A stretch of 64,000 nt of DNA from the NCBI GenBank assembly GCA_964556005.1, contig CAZKUR010000014.1:444-64443 (forward strand), written 5' to 3'. The notes beneath the pieces were generated by a model. That model had not been told where the DNA came from, searched no databases, and saw only the letters and a program-made list of their open reading frames with translations. Shown one piece after another: positions 11,770-56,262 of this stretch (position 1 is its first letter; each line of letters begins with the position of its first letter). A program made the position numbers and the translations under genes. The DNA comes from an uncultured Ignavibacteriaceae bacterium (lineage in GTDB: Bacteria > Bacteroidota > Ignavibacteria > Ignavibacteriales > Ignavibacteriaceae).

Positions 11770-11791
11770 GAAAATGTAAATTTACATTTTC
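11770..11791. promoter_or_regulatory. Perfect 22-bp palindrome, candidate distal operator (O-distal) of the LacI-family regulator
   Basis: GAAAATGTAAATTTACATTTTC equals its own reverse complement. It shares the half-site ATGTAAA with the palindrome at 12033 but lacks the central CG. Confidence 0.45.
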
Positions 11792-12032
11792 TTTAACTTT
11801 ATAAATAATTTGATATAATTGAAAGATTTATTCAATTGCATTGTTGTTTGCGAATAGTTAATAATTAAAATTATTTACAATCGCTTTACAATTATTAAAA
11901 ACTCTATAACATATTTATATAATTGAGGTTAGAGATTTTTTTTAATTTAGTAAAGAAATTTTCGTAAAAAATAATCTGATATTTTATCAATATCTCTTGA
12001 TTATTACAATTCGATTACTTAGCTTTAAAAGC

Positions 12033-12052
12033 AAATGTAAACGTTTACATTT
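12033..12052. promoter_or_regulatory. Perfect 20-bp palindrome, candidate LacI-family operator immediately upstream of the regulator gene
   Basis: AAATGTAAACGTTTACATTT equals its own reverse complement. The TGTAAACGTTTACA core with a central CG is the classical LacI/GalR-family operator architecture. It ends 10 nt before the ATG at 12063. Confidence 0.6.
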
Positions 12053-12062
12053 ATTTATTAAA

Positions 12063-13073
12063 ATGCCAATAACAATAAAAGAAATAGCCTACAAGGCAAA
12101 TGTATCAATTGCAACCGTATCCCGTGCTTTAAATGATAACGATAAAGTACGTCCTTCCACAAAAGAATCAATAAGAAAAATAGCAGAAAGATTAAACTAT
12201 AAACCTAATATAGTTGCTCGAAACCTTGTTAAGAGAAGTACAGGAATTATCGGTTTAGTGTTGCCTGAAATTCAAGGTGATTTTTATACCGATATAATTA
12301 AAGGCGTCGATAAAGCAGCTTCTTCATATAAGTATCATATAATTGTTGCAGGTTCTCATAGTGAAAGATCTGTTGTCGAATCGCTGATTAATTTTATGGG
12401 AAAGAGTATGGTGGACGGTGTTATAATCCTGTCTCCACTGATAAACGATCGCATCAAAGAAATAATTAAAAAAAGCGATACACCATTATTGATTATAGAT
12501 TGTGCTTTCCCTATTGATAATGTCGATACAGTTAATATTGATAATTTTCAGGGGGCATATGCTATTACGGAATACTTGATTAAATCCTTAGGATATACGA
12601 GAATTGCTCATATTGAAGGGCCTGCAAATAATAACGATGCTATTCAAAGAAAAAATGGTTATATTGAAGCATTAAAGAATAATAATCTTCCTTTACGGCA
12701 AGAATGGATTGTTCCCGGTGATTTTACATCGGAAGGAGGAAGGTTAGCCTGCACAAGACTTTTGAGCTTAATGGAAAAACCGGAAGTTATTTTTGCAGGT
12801 AATGATATGATGGCTGCCGGGTGCTATAAAGCCATAAAATCTTTTGGACTTAAAATACCCGGCGACATTGGAGTTGCCGGTTTCGATGATATTCTATTAT
12901 CTAATTTTCTTACTCCACGACTTACTACTGTTCACATTCCAATTACTGAAATAGGTAAATCAGCCGCCAATTTATTGATCGATAAGATTAAAAATGGAGT
13001 CGATCATAAGCCCAGGCATTTGAAAGTGTCTACAGGCATTATAGTTGGCGAATCCTGCAGATTGCTGAAATAA
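12063..13073 (+). CDS. LacI family transcriptional regulator
   Basis: The ORF track gives 11997..13073 (TTG). The ATG at 12063 gives the canonical N-terminus MPITIKEIAYKANVSIATVSRALN (HTH), followed by a periplasmic-binding-protein-like sugar-binding core. Confidence 0.9.
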   Translation: MPITIKEIAYKANVSIATVSRALNDNDKVRPSTKESIRKIAERLNYKPNIVARNLVKRSTGIIGLVLPEIQGDFYTDIIKGVDKAASSYKYHIIVAGSHSERSVVESLINFMGKSMVDGVIILSPLINDRIKEIIKKSDTPLLIIDCAFPIDNVDTVNIDNFQGAYAITEYLIKSLGYTRIAHIEGPANNNDAIQRKNGYIEALKNNNLPLRQEWIVPGDFTSEGGRLACTRLLSLMEKPEVIFAGNDMMAAGCYKAIKSFGLKIPGDIGVAGFDDILLSNFLTPRLTTVHIPITEIGKSAANLLIDKIKNGVDHKPRHLKVSTGIIVGESCRLLK

Positions 13074-13138
13074 TTTTTCCTTAAAACTGACGGTTCATAC
13101 AGTTAATTATTTATTAAACCTTATTAAAAGGAGGAAAT

Positions 13139-14893
13139 ATGAAACGATTGTTATTTACCGTCTCCAGCCTTCTGTTTCTATTCATGTTTGTTTTCGTAAC
13201 AAAAGTTACCGCGCAAAACCATGTGGATCCGCCGTACATTCAAGTAGTTTCGACAGCCGAACCGATGATTGTAGACGGGATTTTAGACGAAACCGATTGG
13301 TTAAAACGCTACGACTACCTGGTATTTAAAGCCGGCGCTTTACCAGGTGATGTAATCTATACGGTTACCGATACTATAACCGTCGTGGGTCCTTATACCG
13401 ATACAACTACAACTTTTGTTAAATTTTTGCATAACGGACTTGATCTTTATATCTCACTTCAATCCGATGATCAATCTGTTGGCAAATTTGGAACAAGCTG
13501 GGAAGGTGACGGACTGTTTATGAAGATTAAGGATGCTTCCGGCATTCCTGTTGAATACAAATTGTATTTTAATGTGGGGGGAACTGACCCGGATATTCAC
13601 TATGAAGAACCTGCAAACTATCCGAATTCCGGTGAGGGAGCTGCCTGGAAACACCCGGGTACTATAGTTAATGATACTACACAAATCGATTCAGGATATA
13701 CTGCTGAGATGGTAATTCATCTTGATCAGCTTGGCTATACCGATTCGTATGCGGATGTTGAAGTTTCAATCAATATATTCGATCCGGATGGATATATTGA
13801 TGATATGGATCCTTACGGCGGTATCGGTTCTTACTGGAAGAGCTGGTGGGGAAGCGAATGGGGAACAGATTTTAGGATTTTAAGATTGGCAGATCCTCAA
13901 TTAATAAATGCAAATAAAACCACCGACAATATTACCTTAGACGGTAAACTCGATGAAACATTCTGGAGCGGTGCCGAACAAGTAGTAATCGGTGTTGGTT
14001 CCAATTTAAGTACCGGCGGATATTATATGCAATGGAATAATCCGCTGAATTCATATACGGATCAAAGCATGGCTACCGTTAAGTTTATACATAATGGAAC
14101 GGATCTTTATATAGGTGTAACTTCAGACGACAAATCGGTTTGTCAGTGGGCGCCCGGATGGGAGGCAGATGGTTTATTCCTCTGGATGACAAACAAGGGT
14201 GAATACCTTCCGGATCCGTCCCAAAGAATGGAAATAAAGAATATGTACTTTGGAGATTCGGTAGGCGGTCCTACCCAATTTCAGTTAAGCGCTACGGTAC
14301 CAACCGGAGGTGCGGAAGGAGCATCATTTGAACCTGCCGGCACGGTAACACATACCGAAGTTGGCGGAGAAGATGCAGGCTACTCTTTAGAAATTGTCGT
14401 TCATACCGATTTGTTCGGTTATTCGGATGGGGATACTGTTCGTGTAAGTGCAGTTATCTGGGATTTGGATTATTCATCTGCCGATGCATATAATGAAGAT
14501 ACATCGGATTATGCTCCTCATTGGTGGGGAAGTCAGTGGGTAGATATCACTTTCGAGAAATATAATCTTTTCAGAATGGTTTATCTATCAAATCTGAGCG
14601 ATGTAAAAGATGTGATTCCAAATGGTCCTTTAACTTTCCAATTATTACAAAATTATCCCAATCCTTTTAATCCGGCTACCACTATTCGTTACACAATTCC
14701 GGAAGGTTCCAAAGTAATACTTAAAGTATATGATATTCTCGGGAAAGAAGTAGCTACCTTAGTAAATGAATATAAGAATGCAGGAAGTTATTTTACTTAC
14801 TGGTCTCCATCTAATCTTGCCAGTGGAATTTATTTCTACCGGCTTCAAGCTGCAGGTATAGTAAAAACAAATAAAATGATGCTTTTGAAATAA
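13139..14893 (+). CDS. Secreted protein with two CBM9-like (carbohydrate-binding family 9-like) modules and T9SS CTD
   Basis: 584-aa ORF behind a strong AAGGAGG SD, with a signal peptide. It contains two internally duplicated modules that start VDGILDETDW and LDGKLDETFW (the IDGxLDExxW motif is typical of CBM9-like domains); each module also contains VKF(L/I)HNG.DLYI. The C-terminus is LLQNYPNPFNPATTIRYTIP...GIYFYRLQAAGIVKTNKMMLLK. Confidence 0.65.
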   Translation: MKRLLFTVSSLLFLFMFVFVTKVTAQNHVDPPYIQVVSTAEPMIVDGILDETDWLKRYDYLVFKAGALPGDVIYTVTDTITVVGPYTDTTTTFVKFLHNGLDLYISLQSDDQSVGKFGTSWEGDGLFMKIKDASGIPVEYKLYFNVGGTDPDIHYEEPANYPNSGEGAAWKHPGTIVNDTTQIDSGYTAEMVIHLDQLGYTDSYADVEVSINIFDPDGYIDDMDPYGGIGSYWKSWWGSEWGTDFRILRLADPQLINANKTTDNITLDGKLDETFWSGAEQVVIGVGSNLSTGGYYMQWNNPLNSYTDQSMATVKFIHNGTDLYIGVTSDDKSVCQWAPGWEADGLFLWMTNKGEYLPDPSQRMEIKNMYFGDSVGGPTQFQLSATVPTGGAEGASFEPAGTVTHTEVGGEDAGYSLEIVVHTDLFGYSDGDTVRVSAVIWDLDYSSADAYNEDTSDYAPHWWGSQWVDITFEKYNLFRMVYLSNLSDVKDVIPNGPLTFQLLQNYPNPFNPATTIRYTIPEGSKVILKVYDILGKEVATLVNEYKNAGSYFTYWSPSNLASGIYFYRLQAAGIVKTNKMMLLK

Positions 14894-14903
14894 ACTTATT
14901 TCA

Positions 14904-14938
14904 GGGAGTAAGCTTCTGAAAGCTTGCTCCCTTTCTCT
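14904..14938 (+). terminator. Rho-independent terminator-like hairpin
   Basis: GGGAGTAAGCTT-CTGA-AAGCTTGCTCCC (12-bp stem with one G-T pair) followed by TTTCTCTT. It starts 10 nt after the stop at 14893. Confidence 0.55.
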
Positions 14939-14998
14939 TCCGGTAAATTAAGTTATTTTTTCTGTAAGACTAATTTTATAACAAAAAAATAAATCTGA

Positions 14999-17644
14999 AT
15001 GAAAAAATTTTACCAACTGACATTTTATATATTCTTATCCCTTATCCTAAATCAGGCTGCAATTTATTCTGGCCAGACAGGAAAAATTGCCGGAACAATA
15101 AAGGATAAGAATACCGGTGAGCTTCTAATAGGAGCCAATATAATTATCGAAAACTCCACAATGGGTGCAGCCGCCGATATTAACGGTGAGTATTTCATTC
15201 TTAATGTCCCTCCCGGTCAATATAATTTGATTGCTTCTATGATGGGGTATCAAAGCATGAAAGTAACCGGGGTTGTAGTGGAGGCAGATAAAACCACGCG
15301 TATAAATTTTGAATTGGAAGCAAAGACTCTTCAGCTTAGTAAAGAAATCGTTGTAACCGCACAAAAAATTATTATAAGAACAGATTTAACCTCAAGCGAA
15401 CTCTCTGTTTCGTCAAATGAAATTAAAAGCCTTCCGTTAGAGAATTTAAGTGATATACTCCAACTAAAAGCAGGAGTTGTAAAAGATGCTAACGGAGGGA
15501 TTCATATTAGGGGAGGCAGAACTTCCGAAGTAACTTATCTCGTTGATGGAATTCCTGTAAATGATTTTTATACCGGGGCGAGTGGAGCAAACATCGATGT
15601 ACAGTTCATGGAGGAAGTAAAAGTGATCAGCGGTGTATTCAATGCTGAATATGGTCAGGCATTATCTGGTGTGGTCGATGTTATAACTAAGCAGACATCC
15701 AAAAATTTCGAAGGCAGTGTTTCGTTCTCGTCAGGAGATTATTTAAGCAACCATAGTAAAATTTTTTATAACATAAATAATATTAATCCAACGAGTGTAA
15801 ATGAAACAAAAATTAATCTCAGCGGACCTGTTGGATTTTTAGGACACAATTTTAGTTATAACGTAGCTTTAAGAAGATATTCGAGTGACGGCTGGATATA
15901 CGGACAAAGGCGTTTCAATCCGAAAGACAGTTCTTACCAGGAAGGAGATCTCTTTCACATCGTATCAACAGGAGATAATAAAGCTGTTCCGATGAATTCT
16001 TATTTAAACTACAGCTTTCAAGGAAAAATTAGTTTTGATTTATTTCCTGAATTAAAGTTTTCAAATCTGTTTTTATGGGATAAATCCGACAGTACGAATT
16101 ACAATCATATATATAAGCTTAACCCTGAGGGATTACCTAAAAATTACAGCAGCGCATTCAACAATATATTTTCATTAACATATGTTTTCTCGCCGAGTAC
16201 CTTTCTTCAATTAAAATATTCTTACAGCCGCAATGATTGGAAATCATACGTTTATGAAAATATGAATGACCCGCGGTATGCAAACCCTCAATTGTTGTTT
16301 CAATTAACCAACTATGCTTTTCTTACCGGCGGAACAGATATGCATTACAATACGCGCACTACACAAACTAATATAGTTAAAGTAGATTTACTCAGCCAGG
16401 TTGATCACTATAATGAGGTTAAAGGAGGTATTGAATTTAACTTATCTCAAATTCAACCCGATAATCAAATTGTCAAATACCAGGATACAGTTAAAATTTT
16501 TGATTATAACTTTTATTTGAATCAAGGCAAATTTTATTTTAATCCGCTTTCCTTTGCTGCCTATTTGCAGGATAAGATTGAATATAAAAGCGTGATTATA
16601 AATGCCGGTGTACGTTATGATTATTTTAATTCAAGAGGAGTAGTTCCTAGCGATTTTAGTGATCCACATAATTCTCCAAAAGTTAAAGCAAAACCGCAAT
16701 ATCAAATCAGTCCTCGTCTCGGTATTGCATTCCCAATATCAGCTGACGGTACAATCCATTTCAGCTATGGACATTTTTTCCAGCTCCCTCCTTATAATTA
16801 TTTATTTACAAATCCGAATTTCAGAGTAGGTCCGGGCGGTTTGTATACTCTAATGGGAAATGCAGATTTAAAAGCTCAATCAACCGTAGCGTATGAAGTT
16901 GGACTTCATTACAAATTTTTGGATATGATTGGATTGGAAGTAATTGGCTTCTATAAAGATATTACAAATTTATTGGGAACTGAAATTCATGATACTTATA
17001 TAAGAAGTGATCGCTACGCACTTTATGTGAACCGCGATTACGGAAAAGCCAGGGGATTTTCAATTTCTTTAACTAAGCAACCGGTTAATGATAATGTTTC
17101 GGTGAGTCTAGATTATACTTTGCAGATAGCCGAAGGTAATGCATCTGATCCGAATGATTCTTATAATAAAGCACAGGGAACTCCGCCTAAAAAACCCAAT
17201 ATCCAGATTGTTCCATTGAATTGGGATCAAAGGCATACAATCAATGTTTCACTGTTTTACATAATTCCAAATAATTATAACATAGGCTTAATCGCTAAAT
17301 ATGAAAGTGGTTTTCCGTATACTCCCGAACTGCAGTCTATTCAAACAAGTTTTGAAAATAGTGCGAGGATGCCCTCCAAGATAAATGTAGATCTTCAATT
17401 CAATAAAGATTTTGTACTCTGGAATTCTACAATATCTTTATATGCGAAAGTCTTTAATTTGTTCGATACAAAAAATGAAAAAGATGTTTATCGTGATACG
17501 GGACGTGCGGGCTATTCGCTCGTTAATCAATATACACCTCAATACCAGGGGCCGAATACTCTTGATGAATATTTAATCAGGCCCGACTTTTATTCCGAAC
17601 CTCGAAGAATCGTACTTGGAATTTCCTATAATTTAAATCTGTAA
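14999..17644 (+). CDS. TonB-dependent transporter with N-terminal carboxypeptidase-regulatory-like domain (SusC-like architecture, but shorter)
   Basis: 881-aa ORF with a signal peptide. It has a CarboxypepD_reg-like segment (GKIAGTIKDKNTGELLIGANIIIENSTMGAAADINGEYFILNVPPGQYNLIASMMGYQ), a plug (IHIRGGRTSEVTYLVDGIPVND) and a long beta-barrel with aromatic-rich alternating strands. Confidence 0.85.
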   Translation: MKKFYQLTFYIFLSLILNQAAIYSGQTGKIAGTIKDKNTGELLIGANIIIENSTMGAAADINGEYFILNVPPGQYNLIASMMGYQSMKVTGVVVEADKTTRINFELEAKTLQLSKEIVVTAQKIIIRTDLTSSELSVSSNEIKSLPLENLSDILQLKAGVVKDANGGIHIRGGRTSEVTYLVDGIPVNDFYTGASGANIDVQFMEEVKVISGVFNAEYGQALSGVVDVITKQTSKNFEGSVSFSSGDYLSNHSKIFYNINNINPTSVNETKINLSGPVGFLGHNFSYNVALRRYSSDGWIYGQRRFNPKDSSYQEGDLFHIVSTGDNKAVPMNSYLNYSFQGKISFDLFPELKFSNLFLWDKSDSTNYNHIYKLNPEGLPKNYSSAFNNIFSLTYVFSPSTFLQLKYSYSRNDWKSYVYENMNDPRYANPQLLFQLTNYAFLTGGTDMHYNTRTTQTNIVKVDLLSQVDHYNEVKGGIEFNLSQIQPDNQIVKYQDTVKIFDYNFYLNQGKFYFNPLSFAAYLQDKIEYKSVIINAGVRYDYFNSRGVVPSDFSDPHNSPKVKAKPQYQISPRLGIAFPISADGTIHFSYGHFFQLPPYNYLFTNPNFRVGPGGLYTLMGNADLKAQSTVAYEVGLHYKFLDMIGLEVIGFYKDITNLLGTEIHDTYIRSDRYALYVNRDYGKARGFSISLTKQPVNDNVSVSLDYTLQIAEGNASDPNDSYNKAQGTPPKKPNIQIVPLNWDQRHTINVSLFYIIPNNYNIGLIAKYESGFPYTPELQSIQTSFENSARMPSKINVDLQFNKDFVLWNSTISLYAKVFNLFDTKNEKDVYRDTGRAGYSLVNQYTPQYQGPNTLDEYLIRPDFYSEPRRIVLGISYNLNL

Positions 17645-17655
17645 TAGGTTTTGTC

Positions 17656-20600
17656 ATGGATAAAAGTAAATCATTTTTTATTACTGTTTTTTTAGTTGCG
17701 TTTTTATCAACAGAAATTCTTTCCCAAATCCAAGTGCCGCTGAATATGCGGGGCGATCGAAAGTATCGAAAAGAGGGAATTCACAACGGCAATTTAGTTG
17801 AAACACTTTTTTATAATTTCGGAGAAGTTGCCTGGTGGGGAAGAGAACCCTCAGGCGTTTGGCCAAAAGGATCGGGGCATTCTTACATGGACGGCATAAC
17901 TCCTATCGTAGCTGCAGAAGTTGAAGATGAAACCGGACAAACTATTCATATAGTCGAAGCAGGGTACAGAGAGAATATGGATATTTCTCCGACAGGTGTG
18001 GAACGCGGCTGGCAGCCGAGGCCCGGATATGTTAATCCTAACCAGGATAATATTGCAATGAGTGATAATCCGATCACCTGGCCGGAAAGCTGGCCCGATA
18101 AAAATGCGTCATGGAACGGCTTTTGGAACGGTTATTTCGGAAAAAGAACTAATGCCGATCAAGAAAGTTTTTTTGTGGTGGATGACAACAGCGATGACGG
18201 GCCTAACTTTTTCCCGGATTCAAAGGATCATACAAGAAGAGGTCTCGGATTAAGTGTCGGTGTAAGAGGGTTTCAATGGTCCAACATTCTTTCAGAAGAT
18301 ATTATTTTCTGGCATTATGAAATTACTAATGAGAGTACTCAAGATTATACAAAGATTATTTTCGGAATGTATGTCGATTGCGGTGTCGGCGGGCAGTATG
18401 ATTCTAACGATGATTATGCTTCATTTGATATAAATAACGATATAACTTATAGCTGGGATCATGACGGAATAGGCCAGGGCGGATGGCATCCTACAGGGTT
18501 TGCCGGTTATGCATTTCTTGAGAGCCCGGGAAACGGTTATAACAAAATTGACGATGACAATGACGGTGAATTTGGAAGTCCTACCATTACTGCCCAGATG
18601 CTTATAGGTGAAATTAAAGGCAACGGGATTGATGATAATAGTAACGGTCTTGTAGATGAAGATTCGATAAATATCGGCATGAAGTACGCTGACGGTATAG
18701 ATAATAACGGCGACGGAAAAATCGATGAGATGATTGATGAAACAAGGGATGACGGAATTGATAACGATGGAAACTGGAATTCCAATACAGATGATGTCGG
18801 ATTGGATGGACTGGCAGGTACAGGTGATTTTGGAGAGGGAGACGGCAAACCTACATCAGGGTGGCAGCCGCCTGGTGTTGTTCCAGGTGCTCCCACTTCG
18901 CCTGTAAATAAATTCGGGTTGGTTGATACTAAACAACCTGGAGAACCGCATATTGATAAAACTGATAAAAATGAATCCGATCAAATTGGGTTAACTGCAT
19001 TCGATGTTTTTTATATCGGTTCGGGAGTTGTCTTCAGGGATGATGATAAGATTTGGGATAGAATTTCCTACAGTCATTTCGATACAAGGCTGCAAAATGG
19101 AAATATAGCTTTTCTTTTCGGTTCCGGTCCATTTATACTTCCCGCCGGAACTACCGAAAGATTTTCGCTTGCATTAGTATTCGGAAATGACCTGGATGAT
19201 ATTAAAAGAAATAAACAGGTCGTACAGGATATTTATAACAATAATTATAATTTTGCCCGTCCGCCTGATAAACCGAATTTAACTGCAGTACCCGGAGATG
19301 GAAGAGTTACCTTGTATTGGGATAATTCGGCAGAAAATTCATACGATGATTTTCTAAAGGAGTATGATTTTGAAGGTTATAAAATTTATCGAGCTACAGA
19401 TCCTGGTTTTCTAGACTCATATACTATTACAAGCGGCTACGGAGAAAATAGTCTTTTTAAACCTTCCGCTCAGTTTGATATAGTGGATGATATAAAAGGA
19501 TTTTTCCCTCTTGATTACCAGGGAGTAAAAGTTTATATGGGAGATAACAAGGGATTAAAACATTCATGGGTTGATACGAATGTTGTTAACGGGCAAACCT
19601 ATTATTATGCATTGGTTTCTTACGATAAAGGAAACTCTGCAATAGGATTATATCCGTCCGAATGCGCGAAAGTTATAGTTCGCGATCTGGCAGGAAATGT
19701 CACGGTCGATAAAAATACGGCTTATGTTACTCCGGGAACAAGAGTAGCAGGTTATGTTCAACCAGGTTTGGAAAGCGGGATTGTACATAGCAGCGGCTTT
19801 GCAACCGGCAGCGTCAGCGTAGATATTTTGGACGCTAATAAAATTTCGGATGGAAATTATACGGTTCTCTTTAACGATACAACCCATCCGGATACAATCT
19901 TATATTCTTTATATAAAATAAATGGAAACGATTCTTCACAGATTTTTGTCGACTCAAAATATATTAATGCTGAAGATTACAATCCCTTGTTCAACGGAAT
20001 GAGAGTTCTTGTTGCAAATGATACTATTGCTTTTGATCCTGATAACTCCGGCTGGAAAAACGGAACATCGAATCTTCTTATTCAAGGTCAATTGTTATAT
20101 TCATTTCCATCAAGAGTACATGGATTTCCATCCAGTTACGAAATCCGTGTTGGACAGCCGGATTCATCCTGGCGGTTCGGTTATAGATCGGCTACGAATT
20201 TTCAAGTCTGGGATATATATGAAAATGAAAAAATGAGATATTATTTATGGGAACCGGATACTCTTATCGATGGAAAAATTTCTGCCGGGGATTACATTAC
20301 TATCTGGATGCAGGTCAATTCTGTTTGGAAAGAAATATGGAAGTTTACATTTATCGCTCCGCCGAATCAAAGATTGTATCTTCCTTCCGAAGGCGAAGTG
20401 GGACAAATTGTAATCAGAACGCCTTTCCGTACCGGTGATACATATACATTTCTAACCAACGGTGCAAAAGTTAATTCGGTACAAGCAGCAAAGGATCTCA
20501 GTAAAATAGCCGTAGTTCCAAATCCCTATGTTGGTTCCGCAAAATGGGAACCGCAGAGATTAACAACTACCGGTAGAGGAGAAAGAAGAATTTATTTTAT

Positions 20601-20811: not shown

Positions 20812-20824
20812 ACAGGTTTATATC

Positions 20825-21835: not shown

Positions 21836-21862
21836 TGATAAATTTTCTAAAAGGAAAATTTA

Positions 21863-24241: not shown

Positions 24242-24268
24242 TAAAAAATAAATCTACGGAGTAAGCAT

Positions 24269-26689: not shown

Positions 26690-26699
26690 ATTAAGGCCG

Positions 26700-27974: not shown

Positions 27975-27989
27975 ATAAATGCTAAAATT

Positions 27990-28880
27990 TTGAATACTCG
28001 AAAATTTAAAATATCGGCAGCCTACTTTTTTCTTGCTCCGTCTCTAATAGTGATTTTTATTTTCTTTTTAATTCCGGTAATTGCTGCTTTGTTAATGAGC
28101 TTTACTGATTTTGATATATATGCACTTGGCAGCATAGGTAATATGAGATTCATCGGAGCCGGAAATTATTTTAATCTTTTTAACGATCCTCTTTTCTGGC
28201 AGGCATTAAAAAATACATCTTACTTTATTCTTGTCGGCGGGCCTTTATCCATATTCGTATCATTGCTTGCGGCAATACTGCTGAGTTCAAAGCTGGTGAA
28301 ATTTAAAAGTTTCTTTAGGCTGGTTTATTTTATGCCAGTCGTTACAACACTGGTCGCCGTTGCAATTGTTTGGAGATACATATACCATCCTCGTTTTGGA
28401 GTGCTTAATTATTTACTCAGCTTTATCGGTATAAATCCAATAGATTGGCTCGGCGATCCGAATTGGGCAATGCCGGCTATAATTCTTCTTGCAATATGGA
28501 AAAACTTCGGTTACAATATGATAATTTTTATCGCCGGAATTCAAAATATTTCGGAAGACCTCTATGATGCCGCTAATTTGGATGGAGCATCAAGCTGGCA
28601 AAAATTTAAAAATATTACACTGCCTTTGCTTGCTCCGACTACAATTTTTATTACTCTCATTACTATCATCGGATACTTTCAATTATTTGCAGAACCCTAT
28701 GTAATGACACAGGGCGGTCCGCTAAACAGTACGCTGAGCATTGTTTTGTATATGTACCAGGAAGGCTTCCGCTGGTGGAATATGGGATATTCTGCGGCAC
28801 TGGCGTTCGTTCTCTTTTTTATTGTTCTCATAATTACTCTAATACAACTTAAGGTAGTTAAAGAAAATACATTATACTAA
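27990..28880 (+). CDS. Carbohydrate ABC transporter permease (MalF/UgpA-like)
   Basis: 296-aa ORF (TTG start) with six hydrophobic segments and the EAA loop EDLYDAANLDGASSWQKFKNITLPLL. Confidence 0.9.
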   Translation: MNTRKFKISAAYFFLAPSLIVIFIFFLIPVIAALLMSFTDFDIYALGSIGNMRFIGAGNYFNLFNDPLFWQALKNTSYFILVGGPLSIFVSLLAAILLSSKLVKFKSFFRLVYFMPVVTTLVAVAIVWRYIYHPRFGVLNYLLSFIGINPIDWLGDPNWAMPAIILLAIWKNFGYNMIIFIAGIQNISEDLYDAANLDGASSWQKFKNITLPLLAPTTIFITLITIIGYFQLFAEPYVMTQGGPLNSTLSIVLYMYQEGFRWWNMGYSAALAFVLFFIVLIITLIQLKVVKENTLY

Positions 28881-29690
28881 ATGAAGAAAATAATAATTCA
28901 TATTTTTATGCTGCTGGCTGCATTGATGTGTTTGCTGCCATTCATTTGGATGCTCTCTGCTTCGTTGATGCAAAGCGGACATGCTAGTGTTTATCCGCCC
29001 AGGTTTATTCCGGATAAAATAACATTCGAGCAGTATGCGAATTTATTTCAACGACTTAATGTTTCAAGATATCTCTTCAATAGTGTTGCCGTTTCGATTT
29101 TGATCACAGTGATTTCGTTATTTGTTAATTCAATGGCGGGATTTGCTTTTGCAAAATATCGCTTTAGGGGAAAAGATAAATTATTCAAAATTCTACTTAG
29201 CTTTATGATTGTACCTGCACAGGTAACAATGCTTCCGCTGTTTCTTATGCTTAAAGAAATGGGATTTATAAATACTTATATGGCTTTAATCATCCCGGGT
29301 ATGGCAAGTGTATTCGGAATATTTTTAATCAGGCAATATCTTCTTTCCATTCCCGACAGTTTAATAGAATCCGCTAAGATAGACGGCGCTTCGGATTTAC
29401 GCATCTATTTTTCCATAATATTACCGCTTGCAAAACCGATATTAATTACACTTGCTATATTTACTTTCATGGGAACGTGGAACGATTTTCTCTGGCCTTT
29501 AATTGCAATGACGGATAATTCAATGTATACTCTTCCGGTTGCACTTGCAAATTTGATGGGAGAGCATACCTCTGATACTGAATTAATGATGGCCGGTTCG
29601 GTAATTACTATCCTGCCGATTTTAATAATCTTCCTCATTTTACAGAAGCAGTATGTAAAAGGAATTATGCTGGGAAGTGTTAAAGGATAA
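28881..29690 (+). CDS. Carbohydrate ABC transporter permease (MalG/UgpE-like)
   Basis: 269-aa ORF directly abutting the previous stop, with the EAA loop DSLIESAKIDGASDLRIYFSIILPLAKP. Confidence 0.9.
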   Translation: MKKIIIHIFMLLAALMCLLPFIWMLSASLMQSGHASVYPPRFIPDKITFEQYANLFQRLNVSRYLFNSVAVSILITVISLFVNSMAGFAFAKYRFRGKDKLFKILLSFMIVPAQVTMLPLFLMLKEMGFINTYMALIIPGMASVFGIFLIRQYLLSIPDSLIESAKIDGASDLRIYFSIILPLAKPILITLAIFTFMGTWNDFLWPLIAMTDNSMYTLPVALANLMGEHTSDTELMMAGSVITILPILIIFLILQKQYVKGIMLGSVKG

Positions 29691-29714
29691 ATAAATATTA
29701 ATTGGTAAAATATT

Positions 29715-31928
29715 ATGAAATTTAAAAATTTATTTTGCTTCAATATCGTTTTATTTACTGCAATAGTTTTTTCTCAAAACAAGGAAGTCGAAAATAAGAT
29801 TGATTCGCTGATATCCCGTATGACATTGCAGGAAAAAGTCGGTCAGTTAGTACAGTACAGTGGCACTGAAAAATGGAAAGAGGAATTGCTCGGGCAAGGT
29901 AGAGTCGGTTCATTTTTAAATATTAGAAATGTTGAAGAAGTAAATAGATTACAAAAAATCGCAATTGAACAAACAAGGCTTGCTATACCATTAATTTTTG
30001 GGAACGATGTTATTCACGGATATAATACAACTTTTCCAATTCCATTAGCACAAGCTTCAAGCTGGAATCCTGAACTTGTCGAACAAGCTGCTTCAATCTC
30101 GGCATTTGAAGCTGCTTCGAACGGTACAAAATGGACCTTTGCTCCAATGGTAGATATAGCTCGGGATCCAAGATGGGGAAGAATAGCTGAAGGTTTTGGT
30201 GAAGATCCTTATCTGGGCAGTGTAATGGCAGCTTCAATTGTAAATGGATTTCAGGGAACAGATATTAGCAGCCCAAATAAAATAGTCGGATGTGCTAAAC
30301 ATTATGTTGCTTACGGAGGTGCTGAAGGAGGACGGGATTATAATACTGTTGATATTTCCGAAAGAACCTTAAGAGAAATTTATCTACCTCCTTTCAAATC
30401 TGCAGTCGATGCAGGAGTAGGAACAATTATGAGTGCATTCAATGAAGTAAATGGAATGCCCGCGTCCGCCAATTATTTTACACTGACTAAAATTTTGAGG
30501 GATGAATGGAAATTTAATGGTTTTGTTGTTAGCGATTGGAATGCAATAGGCGAACTAATAAATCATGGAATTGTTGATAATAAAAAAGATGCAGCTTATT
30601 GCAGTATAACAGCGGGAATAGATATGGACATGGCAGGGGATACATTAATTGGGAACGTCTATTTAAATAATTTGGAAAATCTATTTAAGGATGGAAAGCT
30701 AAATGAAAACATAATAGATACTGCAGTGAAGAGAGTGTTACGTATAAAATTCAAAGCAGGATTATTTGACCATCCATTTGTAAATATAAATTATTTTAAA
30801 GAACGTAATCTTTCCAAAGAAGAAAAAGATAAAACCGCACTTAAGTTATCAAAGGAATCAATAGTACTTTTAAAAAATGAAGGCAATATTTTGCCTTTAA
30901 GAAAGGATATAAAATCAATATCAGTAATCGGTCCACTTGCAGATAATCGTCAGGATGTTTTAGGTCCCTGGAACACCGAACCAATTATAGAAAATGTTGT
31001 AACTGTTTTGAAAGGAATTAAAAATGAGGTTTCTGCTAGTACTAAAATAATTTATAAATTAGGATGTGAGATCAATAGTGAAGATAAAAGTTATTTTGAA
31101 GATGCTGTTAATGCAGCCAAAATTTCCGATGTTGTTTTATTAGTCCTTGGTGAAGGGGCTGATATGAGTGGAGAAGCTGCAAGCAGATCAAATCTTGATT
31201 TGCCCGGTATTCAGGAAGAACTGCTTGAAAGAATTTATCGAATAGGAAAACCCGTAATATTAATTTTAATGAACGGACGTCCCCTCTCCTTTTCATGGGC
31301 AGCGGAAAATATTCCTGCAATTCTTGAAGCCTGGTTTTTAGGAGAGCAAACAGGTAATGCAATTGCAGATGTAATTTTCGGAGATTATAATCCATCCGGG
31401 AAATTGACTGTAAGTTTTCCCCGTACAACTGGACAAATTCCGGTTTATTATAACCATAAAAATACTGGCAGGCCCTTTAATAAAAATGATAAATATACTT
31501 CAAAATATTTAGATTTACCTGAAGGTCCTCTTTATCCGTTCGGTTACGGCTTAAGCTATACAAAATTTGAGTATAATAATATAAAAATCAAATACGATAC
31601 ACTTTCTTCCGGGCAAAATAATTCCGTTAGTATTGATGTTAAAAATATTGGTAAAGTTGAAGGTGAAGAAGTTGTTCAACTTTATGTGCATGATTGTACC
31701 GCAAGCATTACTAGACCGGTTCAGGAATTAAAAGCATTCAAGAAAATTTCTCTAAAACCTGGTGAGAGCAAAACGGTTAGCTTCAATATTTCCCAGGATA
31801 TGCTTTCATTCTATGGAACTGAAATGAAACAGATAGTAGAACCTGGAAAATTTGAAATCATGATCGGCGGAAATTCAGATAATACGATCAAAACTTCTTT
31901 CGTCTTAGGGAAGATGACTGAGATGTAA
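29715..31928 (+). CDS. GH3 beta-glucosidase (BglX-like), periplasmic
   Basis: 737-aa ORF with signal peptide MKFKNLFCFNIVLFTAIVFSQ. GH3 blocks are KHYVAYGGAEGGRDYN and the nucleophile motif GFVVSDW, followed by a C-terminal FN3-like domain. Confidence 0.9.
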   Translation: MKFKNLFCFNIVLFTAIVFSQNKEVENKIDSLISRMTLQEKVGQLVQYSGTEKWKEELLGQGRVGSFLNIRNVEEVNRLQKIAIEQTRLAIPLIFGNDVIHGYNTTFPIPLAQASSWNPELVEQAASISAFEAASNGTKWTFAPMVDIARDPRWGRIAEGFGEDPYLGSVMAASIVNGFQGTDISSPNKIVGCAKHYVAYGGAEGGRDYNTVDISERTLREIYLPPFKSAVDAGVGTIMSAFNEVNGMPASANYFTLTKILRDEWKFNGFVVSDWNAIGELINHGIVDNKKDAAYCSITAGIDMDMAGDTLIGNVYLNNLENLFKDGKLNENIIDTAVKRVLRIKFKAGLFDHPFVNINYFKERNLSKEEKDKTALKLSKESIVLLKNEGNILPLRKDIKSISVIGPLADNRQDVLGPWNTEPIIENVVTVLKGIKNEVSASTKIIYKLGCEINSEDKSYFEDAVNAAKISDVVLLVLGEGADMSGEAASRSNLDLPGIQEELLERIYRIGKPVILILMNGRPLSFSWAAENIPAILEAWFLGEQTGNAIADVIFGDYNPSGKLTVSFPRTTGQIPVYYNHKNTGRPFNKNDKYTSKYLDLPEGPLYPFGYGLSYTKFEYNNIKIKYDTLSSGQNNSVSIDVKNIGKVEGEEVVQLYVHDCTASITRPVQELKAFKKISLKPGESKTVSFNISQDMLSFYGTEMKQIVEPGKFEIMIGGNSDNTIKTSFVLGKMTEM

Positions 31929-31998
31929 TACTATTATACTAATAAAAGAATGATATTAAAAGAACCGAATGAAGATAAAAAAGGATACAGTAATTACA

Positions 31999-32275
31999 GA
32001 CCCGACATCATGTGAATAGATTATCGAAGGTCGGGTGAAGCAATCCCAATAGATGAGATACAAGAGTGAGATTGCTTCACTCGAAAACTCATTACTAATA
32101 ACAAGATAGGTAGTGAATAACCCAAAAAAGTAAAGGTCATTACGAATCCCGATTCATCAGTCACCACGCAGAATCGGGATGAAGTAATCCTATCCATTAT
32201 ATTGATAAAAAGTGAGATTGTCCGCCTAAGGGCGAGACCTCGTCTTTGACGGGCTAAAGCGGGCTTCACTCAACC
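31999..32275. repeat. GC-rich hairpin island (cluster of short stem-loops) in an AT-rich intergenic region
   Basis: Read directly. Stems are ACCCGAC/GTCGGGT (32000-06 / 32030-36), GTGAAGCAATC/GATTGCTTCAC (32035-45 / 32070-80) and ATCCCGATTC/GAATCGGGAT (32146-55 / 32171-80). There is also a unit GTCATTACGAA...GAAGTAATCC (32136-32190). The 82-aa ORF called here looks like a composition artefact. Confidence 0.55.
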
Positions 32276-32344
32276 AATATTCAAATCTGAACTCTGTTGG
32301 GTTCACAATAATTATTGAAATGATTTTAGGGTTTTCCAACTAAT

Positions 32345-32404
32345 ACTAAAATTGTTATTCATCTGATAAATAAAGACAAGGACTTTTCGATAACCGGTTA
32401 TGAC
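32345..32404 (+). repeat. Conserved AT-rich module, copy 1 (second copy at 58412-58478)
   Basis: TTGTTATTCATCTGATAAATAAAGACAAGG (32352-32381) differs at 2 of 30 positions from 58425-58454. The flanks also align (ACTAAAAT upstream, CG.TAAC...ATGAC downstream). Confidence 0.55.
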
Positions 32405-32499
32405 AGTTGATAAGATTATCATCATTTTAATGAAAGGTTAATATATCAGAACTAAATATTGTTATTTCTTTTTCGATTACACTAAGGGAGTAATTAGTT

Positions 32500-34662
32500 A
32501 TGTTATCTCTCAAGAAAATTTTTATAATCATTATTTTCGTATCGATGTTTATTTTTCCTCAATCAAAATATGATAATCATGTTTTTTTTGATTACAGTAA
32601 AAGCGATAATTTTTATTTCTACAGTTCAGGCTTTTTTGACGGCGAATCGAAAATTTCTTTACTAAACAGTAAGCTTCCTGTCGAATCATCTAATTTCTTT
32701 TGTCCTCCTAATTGCATTAGAATGAACTGGACTTCCAGCGAAAATGGTAATTGGAAAGGCATAATTAAAATTGATAAGTGGAGGAACAGGAATATAAATT
32801 TTTACGGAGATTATCTTTCTTTCTGGATTTTTGCTCCTGTTGAAATAGAAAAAAATTCATTGCCTCTTATTTCAATAAAGGATTGGCAAAACAAAGAAAC
32901 GAATGCTTTAAAGATTTCACAATTTATTAATGAAATATTCTACAAAAAATGGACTCAAATTAAAATTCCGATTAAAGCATTTTCAAAAACGGACAAGGCT
33001 TTTAATTTTCATAAAATTAAAGAAATAAATTTCTCTCAAGGTTTTCCTGATAAAAAAGAACATACTCTTTTAATTGATGAAATAACTTTCGTTAATCTTT
33101 ACAATAACTCATTTAACCTTCCGGTTCCTAAATTGATTAAGGCTAAAGGATATGATAGGCATATTGAATTGGAATGGGAGAAAATAAATAATCCTGGATT
33201 ATTTGCATATAAAATATACAGATCAACGAACGGTGTCAATTTTACACCGGTAGCATTTCAAAAAGACAACTTTAATCGTTATTCGGATTTTTTAGGTAAA
33301 AGCGGCGTAAAGGTATATTATAAAGTAAGTTGTCTTGACTTAAATTTTAATGAAAGCCCGCTATCAAATTCTGTTTCTTCCGAAACAAAAAAAATGAGTG
33401 ACGAAGAGTTATTATCAATGGTACAGGAAGCAAGCTTCCGATACTATTGGGATTCGGGTCATAAGGCAGCAGGTTTAGGATTGGAAAATATTCCGGGTGA
33501 TGAAAACTTGATTGCTGTCGGTGCCTCTGGCTTTGGAATTATGGCAATTATTACAGCGGCAGAAAGAGGATTCATAACTCGTGACCAAGCGGTTCAGAGA
33601 CTCTTAATGATTGTTAGGTTTCTAAAAAAAGCAGATACATTTCACGGAGCTTTTCCTCATTTTTTAGATGGGAATACCGGTAATGTTATTCCGCTTTTCG
33701 GGAAACATGACAACGGCGGTGATCTCGTAGAAACTGCATTCTTAATGGAAGGTCTTCTTACGGCAAGGCAGTACTTTAATAAAAATATTGCAGATGAAAA
33801 TGAAATTAGAAATAGCATTACTGAAATCTGGCAACGAATTGAATGGAATTGGTACAAGCAAAGTTCGGACAGCGATTTTTTATTCTGGCATTGGTCCCCA
33901 GACTTTGAGTGGGTTATCAATCATCCTCTCGTCGGCTGGAACGAAACAATGATAGTTTACCTTTTAGCAATTGCTTCTCCAACTTATCCTGTTGAACCGG
34001 AAATGTTTTACAGCGGTTTCTGCGGACAGTCCGAACGCGCCGTGAAGTACCGGCGCAATTGGGGTAAGACTACTGACGGAGATCATTATGCAAACGGTAA
34101 TAACTATTACGGAATAAAACTGGATGTTGGAGTCGGCAGCGGCGGCCCTTTATTTTTTAATCATTATTCGTTCATGGGATTTGATCCCAAGATTATTAAA
34201 GATGAATACACAGACTATTTCGAAAACAGTAAAAATATTACACGAATAAATCATCTATATTGCATTGATAATCCGGGAGGGTATGCTGGTTATGGTGATA
34301 GCTGCTGGGGCTTAACGGCCAGTGATGATCCTTGGGGTTATCTGGCGCATGATCCTTCAGCAAATAAAGATAACGGTACAATTACTCCAACCGGTGCGTT
34401 GGCTTCTTTTCCGTTTACACCGGAAGAATCGATGAAGGCCTTAAAATATTTTTACCGTGAATTAGGCGATAAACTGTGGGGAATATATGGCTTTTACGAT
34501 GCATTTAACTTAACTCAAAATTGGTTTGCTAAAATTTATATGGGATTAAATCAGGCGCCTATTACAGTAATGATTGAAAATTATCGAACCGGATTTATCT
34601 GGAAATTGTTTATGTCGAATCCGGAAATTCAACAAATGGTTAAGAGAATTGGAGTTAAATGA
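32500..34662 (+). CDS. Glucoamylase-like (PF10091-type, GH144-like) enzyme, signal peptide but no T9SS CTD (periplasmic paralogue)
   Basis: 720-aa ORF behind a GGGAG SD, with signal peptide MLSLKKIFIIIIFVSMFIFPQ. It has the same N-terminal module, FN3-like domain and catalytic blocks as 24269..26689 (GASGFGIMAI, FHGAFPHFLDGNTG, GGDLVETAFLMEGLLTARQYF, WNETMIVYLLAIASPTY, GGPLFFNHYSFMGFD, YGFYDAFN...NQAPITVMIEN). It ends ...MVKRIGVK with no PNPFNP tail. Confidence 0.65.
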   Translation: MLSLKKIFIIIIFVSMFIFPQSKYDNHVFFDYSKSDNFYFYSSGFFDGESKISLLNSKLPVESSNFFCPPNCIRMNWTSSENGNWKGIIKIDKWRNRNINFYGDYLSFWIFAPVEIEKNSLPLISIKDWQNKETNALKISQFINEIFYKKWTQIKIPIKAFSKTDKAFNFHKIKEINFSQGFPDKKEHTLLIDEITFVNLYNNSFNLPVPKLIKAKGYDRHIELEWEKINNPGLFAYKIYRSTNGVNFTPVAFQKDNFNRYSDFLGKSGVKVYYKVSCLDLNFNESPLSNSVSSETKKMSDEELLSMVQEASFRYYWDSGHKAAGLGLENIPGDENLIAVGASGFGIMAIITAAERGFITRDQAVQRLLMIVRFLKKADTFHGAFPHFLDGNTGNVIPLFGKHDNGGDLVETAFLMEGLLTARQYFNKNIADENEIRNSITEIWQRIEWNWYKQSSDSDFLFWHWSPDFEWVINHPLVGWNETMIVYLLAIASPTYPVEPEMFYSGFCGQSERAVKYRRNWGKTTDGDHYANGNNYYGIKLDVGVGSGGPLFFNHYSFMGFDPKIIKDEYTDYFENSKNITRINHLYCIDNPGGYAGYGDSCWGLTASDDPWGYLAHDPSANKDNGTITPTGALASFPFTPEESMKALKYFYRELGDKLWGIYGFYDAFNLTQNWFAKIYMGLNQAPITVMIENYRTGFIWKLFMSNPEIQQMVKRIGVK

Positions 34663-34981
34663 TTTCCGGCAATTTACGGTGAAAAATCTTAAATTAAATT
34701 AAACTTTAACTTTAGATGATCATTTCCCCGATAAATAACTTTTTGAAAATTACCTAATTCACTGCAAATAATCATTTCTTAATTAAATTAAGATTTGAAT
34801 TCATTTGATTTTAATTTTGTTACATATAATATGTAGAACTTGTCTATTTATGCTACTTAACCGGTAAACATTTATTGGATATTTCGCTATAATTATTTAT
34901 GATCAACAGGTTTAATAATAGTTCAATTAGTATTAAATTCAGGAAACAATTTATTCAAATTTTTTTTGCAAAGGATTATTC

Positions 34982-35947
34982 ATGGCTAAAACTGGCAAGT
35001 TCGCCGTAGGGGTCGATCTCGGGGGGACAAATATTAAAATCGGGATCGTTTCCGAAAAAGGTACAATTGTAAAAAAAATTTCCGTTAAAACTCAAGCTGA
35101 AGAAGGAACTAAGACTGTAGTTAAGAATATTAAAAAGGGAATTCAGGAAATTTTAAAATCCAATGATTATAAAATTCGCGGAATTGGAATAGGCGCGCCT
35201 GGAGTTGTTGATATAAAGAAAGGAACTGTTGAAAATCCCCCGAACTTTCCAGGTTGGGGAAGAGTTAATTTAATAAAAGCCGTGGCAAAAGATTTTAAAT
35301 ATAAAGTTCATGTAGAAAATGATGCTAATGCAGCCGCAATCGGTGAAATGATTTTCGGAGCAGGGAAAAAATATGATTCGTTTGTTATGGTAACTTTAGG
35401 AACCGGCGTAGGCGGGGGAATTATTCTAAGGAATAAAATGTACCGGGGCGAATTCGGTGCAGCCGGGGAAATCGGGCACATTACAATTGATTATAAAGGT
35501 CCGGAATGTAAATGCGGATCCTTTGGATGTATCGAAGCTTTTGTCGGAAATCAATACTTGGTAAAAAGAGTAAAAGAACAACTACAGGATCATAAAGATT
35601 CCAAAATTTGGGAATTAATTCAAAACAATCCGGAAAATCTTTCTCCTAGAATAATTCAGAATGCATCAGAAAAAGGTGATGAATTTGCAAAATCGATTAT
35701 AAAAGATATGGGCTTGCACCTTGGAGCAGCTCTGGCATCGGTCAGCAATTTGCTCGATATAAGTACATTTATTATGGGTGGTGGAGTTGCCGGTTTTGGC
35801 AAACCTTTATTTGATGTTATACGTACCAGTGTAACAAACCGTGTGTTGAAACCGTTAAAACATAGAGTTAAAGTGCTGCCTGCAAAATTAAAAAATGATG
35901 CAGGAATAAAAGGCGCTTCTGCCCTGGTTTTTTACAGGTCTTCTTGA
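34982..35947 (+). CDS. ROK family glucokinase
   Basis: 321-aa ORF with the ATP-binding motif GVDLGGTNIKIG, the ROK zinc motif HITIDYKGPECKCGSFGCIEAF, and ENDANAAAIGE. Confidence 0.85.
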   Translation: MAKTGKFAVGVDLGGTNIKIGIVSEKGTIVKKISVKTQAEEGTKTVVKNIKKGIQEILKSNDYKIRGIGIGAPGVVDIKKGTVENPPNFPGWGRVNLIKAVAKDFKYKVHVENDANAAAIGEMIFGAGKKYDSFVMVTLGTGVGGGIILRNKMYRGEFGAAGEIGHITIDYKGPECKCGSFGCIEAFVGNQYLVKRVKEQLQDHKDSKIWELIQNNPENLSPRIIQNASEKGDEFAKSIIKDMGLHLGAALASVSNLLDISTFIMGGGVAGFGKPLFDVIRTSVTNRVLKPLKHRVKVLPAKLKNDAGIKGASALVFYRSS

Positions 35948-42628: not shown

Positions 42629-42629
42629 T

Positions 42630-45698: not shown

Positions 45699-45699
45699 A

Positions 45700-49050: not shown

Positions 49051-49151
49051 GATTTTATAAAATTTAGAAAATAAAAAATAATGAATATCAAACCATCATT
49101 AAAAAATTTTATTTATAAAAAAAGTTTTTTATTAAAATAGGAGAGTATTAA

Positions 49152-50444: not shown

Positions 50445-50461
50445 TAAAATCGGAATTAAAG

Positions 50462-51184: not shown

Positions 51185-51215
51185 AAATGAAAATAATTAA
51201 AATTTAGGTAGTATT

Positions 51216-56231: not shown

Positions 56232-56262
56232 TCTTCTAAATCAATTTTAATATAGGGAATAC

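Follow-up and report, generated by a model that had tools for sequence, protein, structure and literature searches.

Which glucan does a block of catabolic genes in an uncultured Ignavibacteriaceae bacterium serve, and by what route would that glucan reach the cytoplasm? The block lies in a stretch of 64,000 nucleotides from contig CAZKUR010000014.1 (assembly GCA_964556005.1), hereafter the window, with a GC content of 35%. It consists of 13 open reading frames (ORFs), running from a LacI-family regulator to a ROK-family kinase in one co-directional block on the + strand, as described in the initial annotation and matched here family by family through Pfam and NCBIfam profile scans, with signal peptides read by eye from the N-termini. 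Judged from its sequence, the locus most probably serves the LacI-controlled use of exogenous beta-1,2-glucan and sophoro-oligosaccharides (Sopn) through a compartmentalised relay. It is a further member of the beta-1,2-glucan cluster published for Ignavibacterium, a variant with a glycoside hydrolase (GH) family 3 enzyme and a ROK kinase and without a GH35.

The relay would begin at the cell surface, where a protein exported by the secretion system of type IX (T9SS) and carrying two domains resembling carbohydrate-binding module family 9 (CBM9) would bind the glucan, and a T9SS-exported GH144 enzyme, GH144a, would cut it. The fragments would cross the outer membrane via a single TonB-dependent transporter (TBDT) which is not of the SusC type, working with a 1051-aa surface protein whose uncleaved C-terminal domain (CTD) probably attaches to the PorV/PorQ-family barrel encoded beside it, in the manner of PorZ and PorQ. 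By homology, a second GH144 enzyme resembling BDI_3064, GH144b, would free sophorose (Sop2) from Sopn in the periplasm, with a BglX-type GH3 freeing glucose, while a Lin1841-like lipoprotein solute-binding protein (SBP) and two permeases would import Sopn across the inner membrane with an ATPase encoded elsewhere. In the cytoplasm, phosphorolysis of beta-1,2 linkages by a GH94 enzyme would yield alpha-glucose 1-phosphate, with the freed glucose being phosphorylated by the ROK kinase. LacI would bind TGTAAACGTTTACA upstream of its own gene, at the head of the operon. A relay of this kind was speculated for the "SGL gene cluster" of Ignavibacterium album, passing from extracellular GH144 through a TBDT, a periplasmic GH144 and an ABC importer to cytoplasmic GH94 (Kobayashi et al., 2022, J Biol Chem, PMC8861115). 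Because the same was proposed there, the relay put forward in the initial annotation, right in its main lines, had already appeared in print as a hypothesis, and it now contains one TBDT.

Two glucoamylase-like ORFs had been read as GH144 members and both belong to this family by sequence and by their catalytic and clan-defining residues. GH144a (24269–26689, +) is composed of a signal peptide, a CBM30-like N-domain, an Fn3-like region, an (alpha/alpha)6 catalytic domain and a T9SS CTD, while GH144b (32500–34662, +) has a signal peptide and no CTD. PF10091 matches them at 235 and 246 bits, respectively. In each case the best match in the PDB, over the full length, is the GH144 exo-sophorohydrolase BDI_3064 (5Z06; 587 bits for GH144a, 761 bits for GH144b), followed by the endo-beta-1,2-glucanase CpSGL (5GZH; 479 and 418 bits), with E values down to 1e-228. 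CpSGL residues D135, D139, E142, E211, F268 and Y330 are conserved in both enzymes, E211 being the general acid and E142 the candidate base of CpSGL (PMC12102758), and alignment of GH144a to CpSGL displays D-x3-D-x2-E, GWNE, GGPLF and GY, the same motifs being present in GH144b. The T9SS tail ascribed to the first enzyme alone is confirmed, TIGR04183 scoring 32.3 bits against a cutoff of 23, as expected of T9SS type A cargo. The two paralogues are 45% identical and differ by a 17-aa insertion in the catalytic domain, common to GH144b and BDI_3064 and absent from GH144a, CpSGL and 4GL3. Furthermore, the catalytic domain of GH144a taken alone scores highest against the short GH144 4GL3. Together, the insertion pattern and the 4GL3 match mildly support a surface enzyme that differs from the periplasmic exo enzyme, with endo action not proven, and GH144a is predicted from sequence to be a surface beta-1,2-glucanase.

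The import genes point to the same linkage. The SBP (26700–27974, +; PF01547, lipobox FFFSAC) belongs to a CUT1-type ABC importer and is Lin1841-like by sequence similarity, its PDB matches being led by an uncharacterised Xanthomonas SBP (3UOR, 376 bits) with Lin1841 at rank 2 (263 bits, E 5e-77), and generic sugar SBPs reaching at most 137 bits. Two permease genes follow (27990–28880 and 28881–29690, both +, PF00528 each), and no CUT1-type ABC ATPase is found in the 64-kb window. The GH3 beta-glucosidase (29715–31928, +), predicted to be periplasmic, is of the BglX type, with 808 bits to the BglX equivalog NF011678 (cutoff 666) and PDB matches to BT_3567 (675 bits) and Lin1840 (587 bits). The reported GFVVSDW is located at residue 269 and represents the nucleophile motif. 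The signal-peptide pattern described beforehand, absent from GH94 and present in GH3 and GH144b, fits the N-termini. The ROK-family sugar kinase (34982–35947, +; PF00480, 245 bits) lacks a helix-turn-helix (HTH) domain, is predicted to be cytoplasmic and scores 247 bits to TIGR00744, slightly below the cutoff of 260; it is probably a glucokinase.

Two characterised settings provide a comparison for these components. The Listeria innocua cluster, which encodes the 1,2-beta-oligoglucan phosphorylase Lin1839 (SOGP, GH94), the GH3 Lin1840 and the SBP Lin1841 with its ABC importer, shares the Lin1841-type import of Sopn, a BglX-related GH3 and a GH94 phosphorylase yielding alpha-glucose 1-phosphate. 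The organism is Gram-positive, however, with no outer-membrane stage, and its cluster has no GH144. Lin1839 is a monomeric SOGP of ~1,090 aa, whereas the window GH94 has 792 aa and lacks the Ndom1 sandwich. Bacteroidales GH144 loci (Parabacteroides distasonis BDI_3064, the B. thetaiotaomicron BT_3567 locus and Chitinophaga pinensis CpSGL) share GH144 enzymes, including the N-terminally extended, exo-type architecture of BDI_3064, and a periplasmic GH3. These loci use SusC/SusD pairs and, to our knowledge, are without ABC importer and phosphorylase. The window, on the other hand, has no SusD, a TBDT not of the SusC type, an ABC-type importer and a phosphorolytic final step.

The GH94 gene (21863–24241, +) encodes a stand-alone protein of 792 aa, predicted to be cytoplasmic, with matches to PF06165 (259 bits) and PF17167 (396 bits). 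Its GDWND, reported earlier and situated at residue 477, aligns with the catalytic region of cyclic beta-1,2-glucan synthases (Cgs) and cellobiose phosphorylases (CBP), and the protein contains the supersandwich and (alpha/alpha)6 domains and the DWND Asp of GH94 glycoside phosphorylases. A representative search of 1.8 billion sequences (50%-identity library) returned ~10 stand-alone relatives followed by ~130 proteins of 1.1–3.1 kaa, mostly 2.7–3.0 kaa, aligned through their C-terminal region and interpreted as Cgs by their length. Identity is 35–38% to the GH94 domains of Cgs and 33.5% to the C. thermocellum CBP (CtCBP). The clade of the window enzyme and Cgs have in common YYQxxG-AFGFRDQLQD (without Arg and with a 3-residue deletion), GDWNDG and RENGGxYTHA, and the window GH94 differs from CBP-type acceptor residues, namely the Arg in G-R-G-x-G-F-RD, ADWNDC and KENAG. 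In a neighbour-joining (NJ) tree built from 40 sequences (771 columns, 200 bootstraps), the split between CBP-like sequences and all others has 100% support, as has the Cgs clade, the stand-alone clade reaching 70.5%. By identity, motifs and tree, the enzyme does not belong to the CBP subgroup, in agreement with the expectation that it would not cluster tightly with cellobiose phosphorylases; it is Cgs-type by nearest clade and by shared active-site motifs and indels, the raw-score margin being small. The phylogenetic placement called for in the initial annotation was made relative to CBP-like enzymes and Cgs, the tree not including SOGP, chitobiose phosphorylases (ChBP) or cellobionate phosphorylases (CBAP).

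Cgs is the closest clade, with catalytic-domain motifs and indel states in common, yet its GH94 domain forms the C-terminal part of a ~2,800-aa membrane synthase with an additional GP1 sandwich. SOGP architecture, on the other hand, includes an extra N-terminal sandwich, Ndom1, which forms a pocket and is carried by LpSOGP (PMC5309861). The window GH94 is outside this subgroup of ~1,100-aa, monomeric, Ndom1-bearing enzymes and is CBP-sized, as had been noted. The spacing of its RE....Y.H motif fits LpSOGP R916, E917, Y922 and H924, and the enzyme may work like an SOGP without belonging to that subgroup. It is probably, on sequence grounds, a CBP-sized phosphorylase with a Cgs-type acceptor site which acts on beta-1,2 linkages and which, given its CBP size and its existence as a free protein in the cytoplasm, presumably forms homodimers as CBP does. 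Separately, P0413, a stand-alone GH94 representative of 814 aa, nests in the Cgs clade with 100% bootstrap, a hint at more than one origin of free-standing phosphorylases from Cgs, or of Cgs from them.

The outer-membrane module is composed of four genes, with the surface binder preceding the TBDT, the 1051-aa protein and the barrel. The last three had been read as a trio of TBDTs, of which only the product of 14999–17644 (+) is one, with CarboxypepD_reg, Plug and barrel domains; 17656–20811 has no Pfam match and 20825–21835 encodes a PorV/PorQ-family barrel. The TBDT is not SusC/RagA (TIGR04056, 71 bits against a cutoff of 368), no ORF of the locus matches a SusD family in Pfam, and the adjacent SusC/SusD pair that defines the canonical Bacteroidota polysaccharide utilisation locus is absent. 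The surface binder (13139–14893, +), a protein of 584 aa, has a T9SS type A CTD (PF18962, 38 bits; TIGR04183, 40.4 bits) and two tandem repeats, the internal duplication being visible in the family consensus. Its AlphaFold2 model (pLDDT 85) matches CBM9 1I82 as top Foldseek result (probability 1.0, TM 0.76) and also CBM9 7NWN (probability 1.0), with TM-scores of 0.71–0.76 for the two structures. The description of this protein as CBM9-like with a T9SS tail therefore holds at the level of the fold and for the tail; PF06452, the Pfam CBM9 family, is not detected in it even at E ≤ 5, and several homologues carry PF06452. The fold-level assignment to CBM9, resting on the model, is new in this work, and the protein is predicted to be a surface glycan binder.

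The 1051-aa protein (17656–20811, +) is beta-rich and has a signal peptide as well as a putative, divergent CTD of T9SS-like type (~977–1051) displaying the motifs PNPY, GIYIYHV and KFAVIK, and belongs to an unannotated family of at least 4315 homologues, all of the 120 listed being named "hypothetical protein" at source. No other protein of the locus is as conserved: identity to the nearest relative is 88%, compared with 77% for GH94. The AlphaFold2 model (pLDDT 72.7) is beta-rich with an immunoglobulin-like sandwich at 979–1049, and Foldseek places PorZ (5M11) at the top, followed by Fn3 arrays and by GH94/GH149 supersandwich domains, all at low TM-scores, which over the whole chain are attributed to the multidomain layout. 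Profile searches of the family against Pfam and PDB gave marginal CTD-type matches only, and the family profile matches the PorU CTD weakly (E 0.28).

The neighbouring barrel (20825–21835, +; NF033709, PF19572) is a member of the PorV/PorQ family, with 224 bits to NF033709 against a cutoff of 90. Its equivalog scores are below cutoff for both PorQ (106 against 220) and PorV (87 against 250), which identifies it as a paralogue and not the housekeeping PorV or PorQ. In every context examined, the 1051-aa family gene is followed by a gene for a PorV/PorQ-family protein, and in most of them it is preceded by the CBM9 and TBDT genes; the TBDT is paired with the 1051-aa family and the PorV-like barrel wherever upstream sequence is available. 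In the PorZ–PorQ system, PorQ retains PorZ at the surface via an uncleaved CTD, and a role of cognate PorV-like barrels in shielding CTDs from cleavage has been proposed (PMC10202324). The window pair resembles this system in that a predicted surface protein with a putative CTD is encoded beside a PorV-family barrel, PorZ being the top Foldseek match of the 1051-aa model. It differs in lying within a catabolic operon beside a TBDT, with a barrel under the PorV and PorQ equivalog cutoffs and a divergent, sub-threshold CTD. By analogy with PorZ–PorQ, we infer that the barrel may anchor the 1051-aa protein beside the TBDT, the pair forming a SusD-independent capture device.

The module recurs with other enzymes. 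Distant copies, with the large protein 41–46% identical, occur in three related loci (L082, 5767–19854; L083, 460–15267; L085, 474–16113), where they precede an SSF symporter, a ROK protein and a GH94 of 809–812 aa with CBP-type motifs, which suggests that this outer-membrane machinery also serves a parallel system of the cellodextrin type. In a further locus (L002), two paralogous modules of CBM9 protein, TBDT, ~1050-aa protein and PorV-like barrel flank the same GH94, and I. album (L081, 1–3863) has an extra pair, consisting of a 1097-aa protein and a PorV-like barrel, just upstream of its cluster; the module is thus multi-copy within a genome. No published description of it was found in literature searches, and the conserved four-gene outer-membrane module without SusD is new in this work. 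Whether the quartet constitutes an undescribed T9SS-dependent, SusD-free machine for glycan capture and import, together with the 792-aa GH94 being a dimeric beta-1,2-oligoglucan or sophorose phosphorylase of new specificity, is a tentative proposal that we regard as possible rather than probable. The outer-membrane step of the relay is weakened by the C-terminus of the 1051-aa protein, which is sub-threshold for TIGR04183 (19.2 bits, cutoff 23) with an E value of 5.6e-5 to the PorZ C-terminus, and by the moderate quality of the model and the low TM-score of its PorZ match.

Control of the locus by LacI is suggested by a conserved site. The regulator gene (12063–13073, +; PF00356, PF00532, PF13377) likely starts at ATG 12063, giving the N-terminus MPITIKEIAYKANVS, its longest ORF being 11997–13073 with a TTG start at 11997. 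A perfect palindrome, TGTAAACGTTTACA, is located at 12036–12049, 13 nt upstream of this ATG. Exact copies exist in 35 of 83 related loci, and allowing up to one mismatch yields 62 sites in related loci. Of these, 30 lie up to 400 nt upstream of LacI, 9 precede the CBM9 gene and 3 precede GH94, and no mapped gene contains one. As it is conserved across related loci and sited upstream of LacI, the CBM9 gene or GH94, TGTAAACGTTTACA is likely the operator of the LacI regulon. The regulator has the HTH and periplasmic-binding-protein-like domains of the LacI/GalR family along with a palindromic operator with a central CG. Further copies in the window (up to 3 mismatches) are not above chance, only the site at 12036 being convincing. 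Position 11770, taken initially as the start of the locus, is no gene start and represents the first base of a perfect 22-bp palindrome, GAAAATGTAAATTTACATTTTC (11770–11791), 270 nt upstream of LacI, with TGTAAA/TTTACA half-sites as in the LacI operator and without the central CG; it is possibly a second operator or promoter element. The conserved operator TGTAAACGTTTACA is new in this work.

Related loci place the window in a defined lineage. In genome collections, GH94 relatives are found almost entirely in metagenome-assembled genomes of Ignavibacteria or Melioribacteraceae, the best being 78% identical, with the remaining few in Neomarinimicrobiota, KSB1, Calditrichia and Kryptoniota; a lookup of the exact window GH94 sequence in a contig index gave no match. 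An origin in Flavobacteriia, to which the 35% GC and the T9SS tails had first pointed, was rejected, since the nearest loci come from Ignavibacteria and Melioribacteraceae. Synteny was assessed by tblastn of window proteins against 81 related loci, many truncated. GH94 is linked to a GH144a-like gene in 45 of these; for the CBM9 protein such linkage is seen in 44 loci, for the PorV-like barrel in 40, for the TBDT in 39, for the 1051-aa protein in 38 and for the SBP in 34. The locus of I. album (L081), from the same phylum-level lineage, shares LacI, a stand-alone 792-aa GH94 (59% identical), the CBM9/T9SS protein, the TBDT, an unknown protein of ~1090 aa, a barrel of ~340 aa and the first GH144. 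The window differs in lacking the GH35 transglucosylase IaSGT, in its added ROK kinase, in gene order, with GH94 placed after the outer-membrane module, and in that this module is of a paralogous lineage (25–39% identical). For I. album, a second GH144 and a Lin1841-like SBP/ABC importer are listed by the published account, which is in conflict on GH3, listing a putative GH3 beta-glucosidase and elsewhere no beta-glucosidase homologue; the ~1050-aa protein, the PorV-like barrel and an operator are not discussed there (PMC8861115).

Several observations weigh against the beta-1,2-glucan reading, and part of them would fit a different beta-glucan substrate (cellodextrins or cellulose, or laminarin), in which case GH94 would be of the cellobiose or laminaribiose type and the GH144 enzymes would act on other linkages. 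GH94 is of CBP size, and its main domain has 462 bits to A. tumefaciens Cgs and 464 bits to CtCBP in phmmer, a marginal case by score; because these scores are equal, it is the representative search, the motifs and the tree that carry the Cgs placement. The tree contains only six CBP-like sequences and leaves out SOGP, ChBP and CBAP. A statement that Cgs is clearly the best PDB match (506 against 465 bits) was dropped, 506 being the sum of two stretches. There is no match of GH94 to an SOGP structure at E ≤ 1e-3, with Ndom1 absent, and no characterisation of IALB_1177 was found in a literature search. The best structural match of the surface binder is a cellobiose complex, and CBM9 modules classically bind reducing ends of cellulose and xylan. 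The same outer-membrane quartet also stands beside clusters of CBP-type GH94, SSF and ROK genes, and consequently the quartet alone is no indicator of beta-1,2 specificity. BglX-type GH3 enzymes hydrolyse Sop2 and laminaribiose (Lam2) at comparable rates (PMC12369401). GH144a and GH144b both have the BDI_3064-type N-terminal extension, so that the surface enzyme may be exo-acting and the endo cleavage assigned to it in the initial annotation is doubtful. Genes for GH3, GH144b-like proteins and ROK are rare in the related loci, and in the window GH144b and ROK are preceded by gaps of 571 and 319 nt, respectively, neither with an operator copy. Even so, another beta-glucan as substrate is unlikely, since the locus holds two GH144 genes with intact catalytic residues, a family which acts on beta-1,2-glucans in the literature consulted, as well as a Lin1841-like SBP. 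In addition, GH94 differs from CBP-like enzymes at the Arg closing subsite +2 and in RENGG versus KENA, the NJ tree parts the CBP-like group with full bootstrap, and no GH5, GH9, GH16 or GH17 is detected among the locus genes by Pfam scan.

A second alternative is that the genes recycle or remodel the cell's own periplasmic beta-1,2-glucans, of the osmoregulated periplasmic glucan (OPG) or cyclic-glucan type, instead of foraging outside. The sister group of the GH94 clade is the domain by which cyclic glucan synthases control glucan length, and periplasmic GH144b, GH3 and SBP could act on an endogenous glucan. However, three gene products predicted to be T9SS-exported or to bear a CTD and a TBDT argue for capture from outside the cell, the window contains no Cgs or Opg synthase gene, and control by a LacI repressor is typical of catabolic loci, which makes recycling very unlikely. 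A third alternative holds that sophorosides, or other small molecules carrying beta-1,2-bound glucose, are used in nature instead of polymer, as suggested for I. album, where Sop2 has been proposed as donor for IaSGT acting on aryl- and alkyl-glucosides (PMC8861115). Sopn occur mainly as sophorosides (PMC12369401), but this alternative is very unlikely, given that no GH35 is found in the 64-kb window, that a surface protein with two CBM9-like domains, a surface GH144 and a TBDT are better suited to a polymer or oligomer than to a small glycoside, and that Lin1841 binds Sop3–5. All three alternatives are disfavoured by the intact state of both GH144 enzymes, the similarity of the SBP to Lin1841, the GH94 motifs, which are not of CBP type, and the exported components, and the compartmentalised use of exogenous beta-1,2-glucan is retained as the preferred reading.

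The genes of the proposed route are tightly packed. From TBDT to GH3 the gaps are 11, 13, 27, 27, 10, 15, 0 and 24 nt, and the range of 0–27 nt given earlier for 14999–31928 holds only if the SBP start is moved to ATG 26700 (MMLKKNLKLIIGILFFFSAC, with the lipoprotein box), the longest ORF, from 26586, overlapping GH144a by 104 nt. Between the CBM9 and TBDT genes, a hairpin with a 13-bp stem followed by a T-rich tract (14903–14932, +) is a possible partial terminator, through which the surface binder may be expressed more highly than the downstream genes. Apart from this hairpin, scans for sigma-70 promoters and terminators were at background level, and Rfam at gathering threshold gave no matches in the whole window. 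The 571-nt non-coding gap between GH3 and GH144b (31929–32499) contains no ORF and no Rfam match and has hairpins at 32031–32084 (18-nt arms) and 32146–32180 (10-nt perfect arms); it could be a terminator/promoter region or the remnant of a small repeat element.

Outside the locus, three further T9SS type A cargo genes are present, at 5860–7797 (−, unknown function), 7991–10804 (−, esterase domain) and 39385–41685 (+, BNR/sialidase-like repeats), and T9SS export is thus evidently used heavily by the organism. Directly downstream, genes related to lipopolysaccharide (35986–38547, 42576–43607 and 44277–46437) encode LptD_2, a SIS+CBS protein (KpsF/GutQ-like) and an OstA/LptA-like protein, with an ABC ATPase, possibly LptB, next to the latter. 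Further on are a MacAB-TolC-type efflux cluster (47695–55299; OEP, HlyD, an ABC ATPase and three MacB/FtsX permeases) and an ABC ATPase, possibly PstB, followed by PhoU (55473–56973).

Beta-1,2-glucans, as cyclic glucans and osmoregulated periplasmic glucans, are made by many Proteobacteria, while their environmental turnover is poorly mapped. The locus and its ~80 syntenic relatives would represent a regulated route of catabolism, conserved across Ignavibacteria and allied uncultured phyla, in which uptake by TonB-dependent transport is joined to ABC import and to phosphorolysis, which saves energy. Follow-up is most worthwhile for the GH94 clade, as yet uncharacterised, and for the outer-membrane quartet, and targets for biochemistry are provided by the Cgs-like stand-alone GH94 enzymes, the GH144 paralogues differing by the BDI_3064-type insertion and the widespread 1051-aa family (at least 4,315 proteins) paired with its PorV-like barrel. 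If the proposal for the quartet is true, Ignavibacteriota, Calditrichota, Marinimicrobia, KSB1 and their relatives would possess in it an equivalent of the SusCD "utilisome" that is redeployed with varying enzymes downstream, for beta-1,2-glucan here and with CBP-type clusters elsewhere, and the 1051-aa family and its barrel could explain glycan capture by FCB-group bacteria without SusD.

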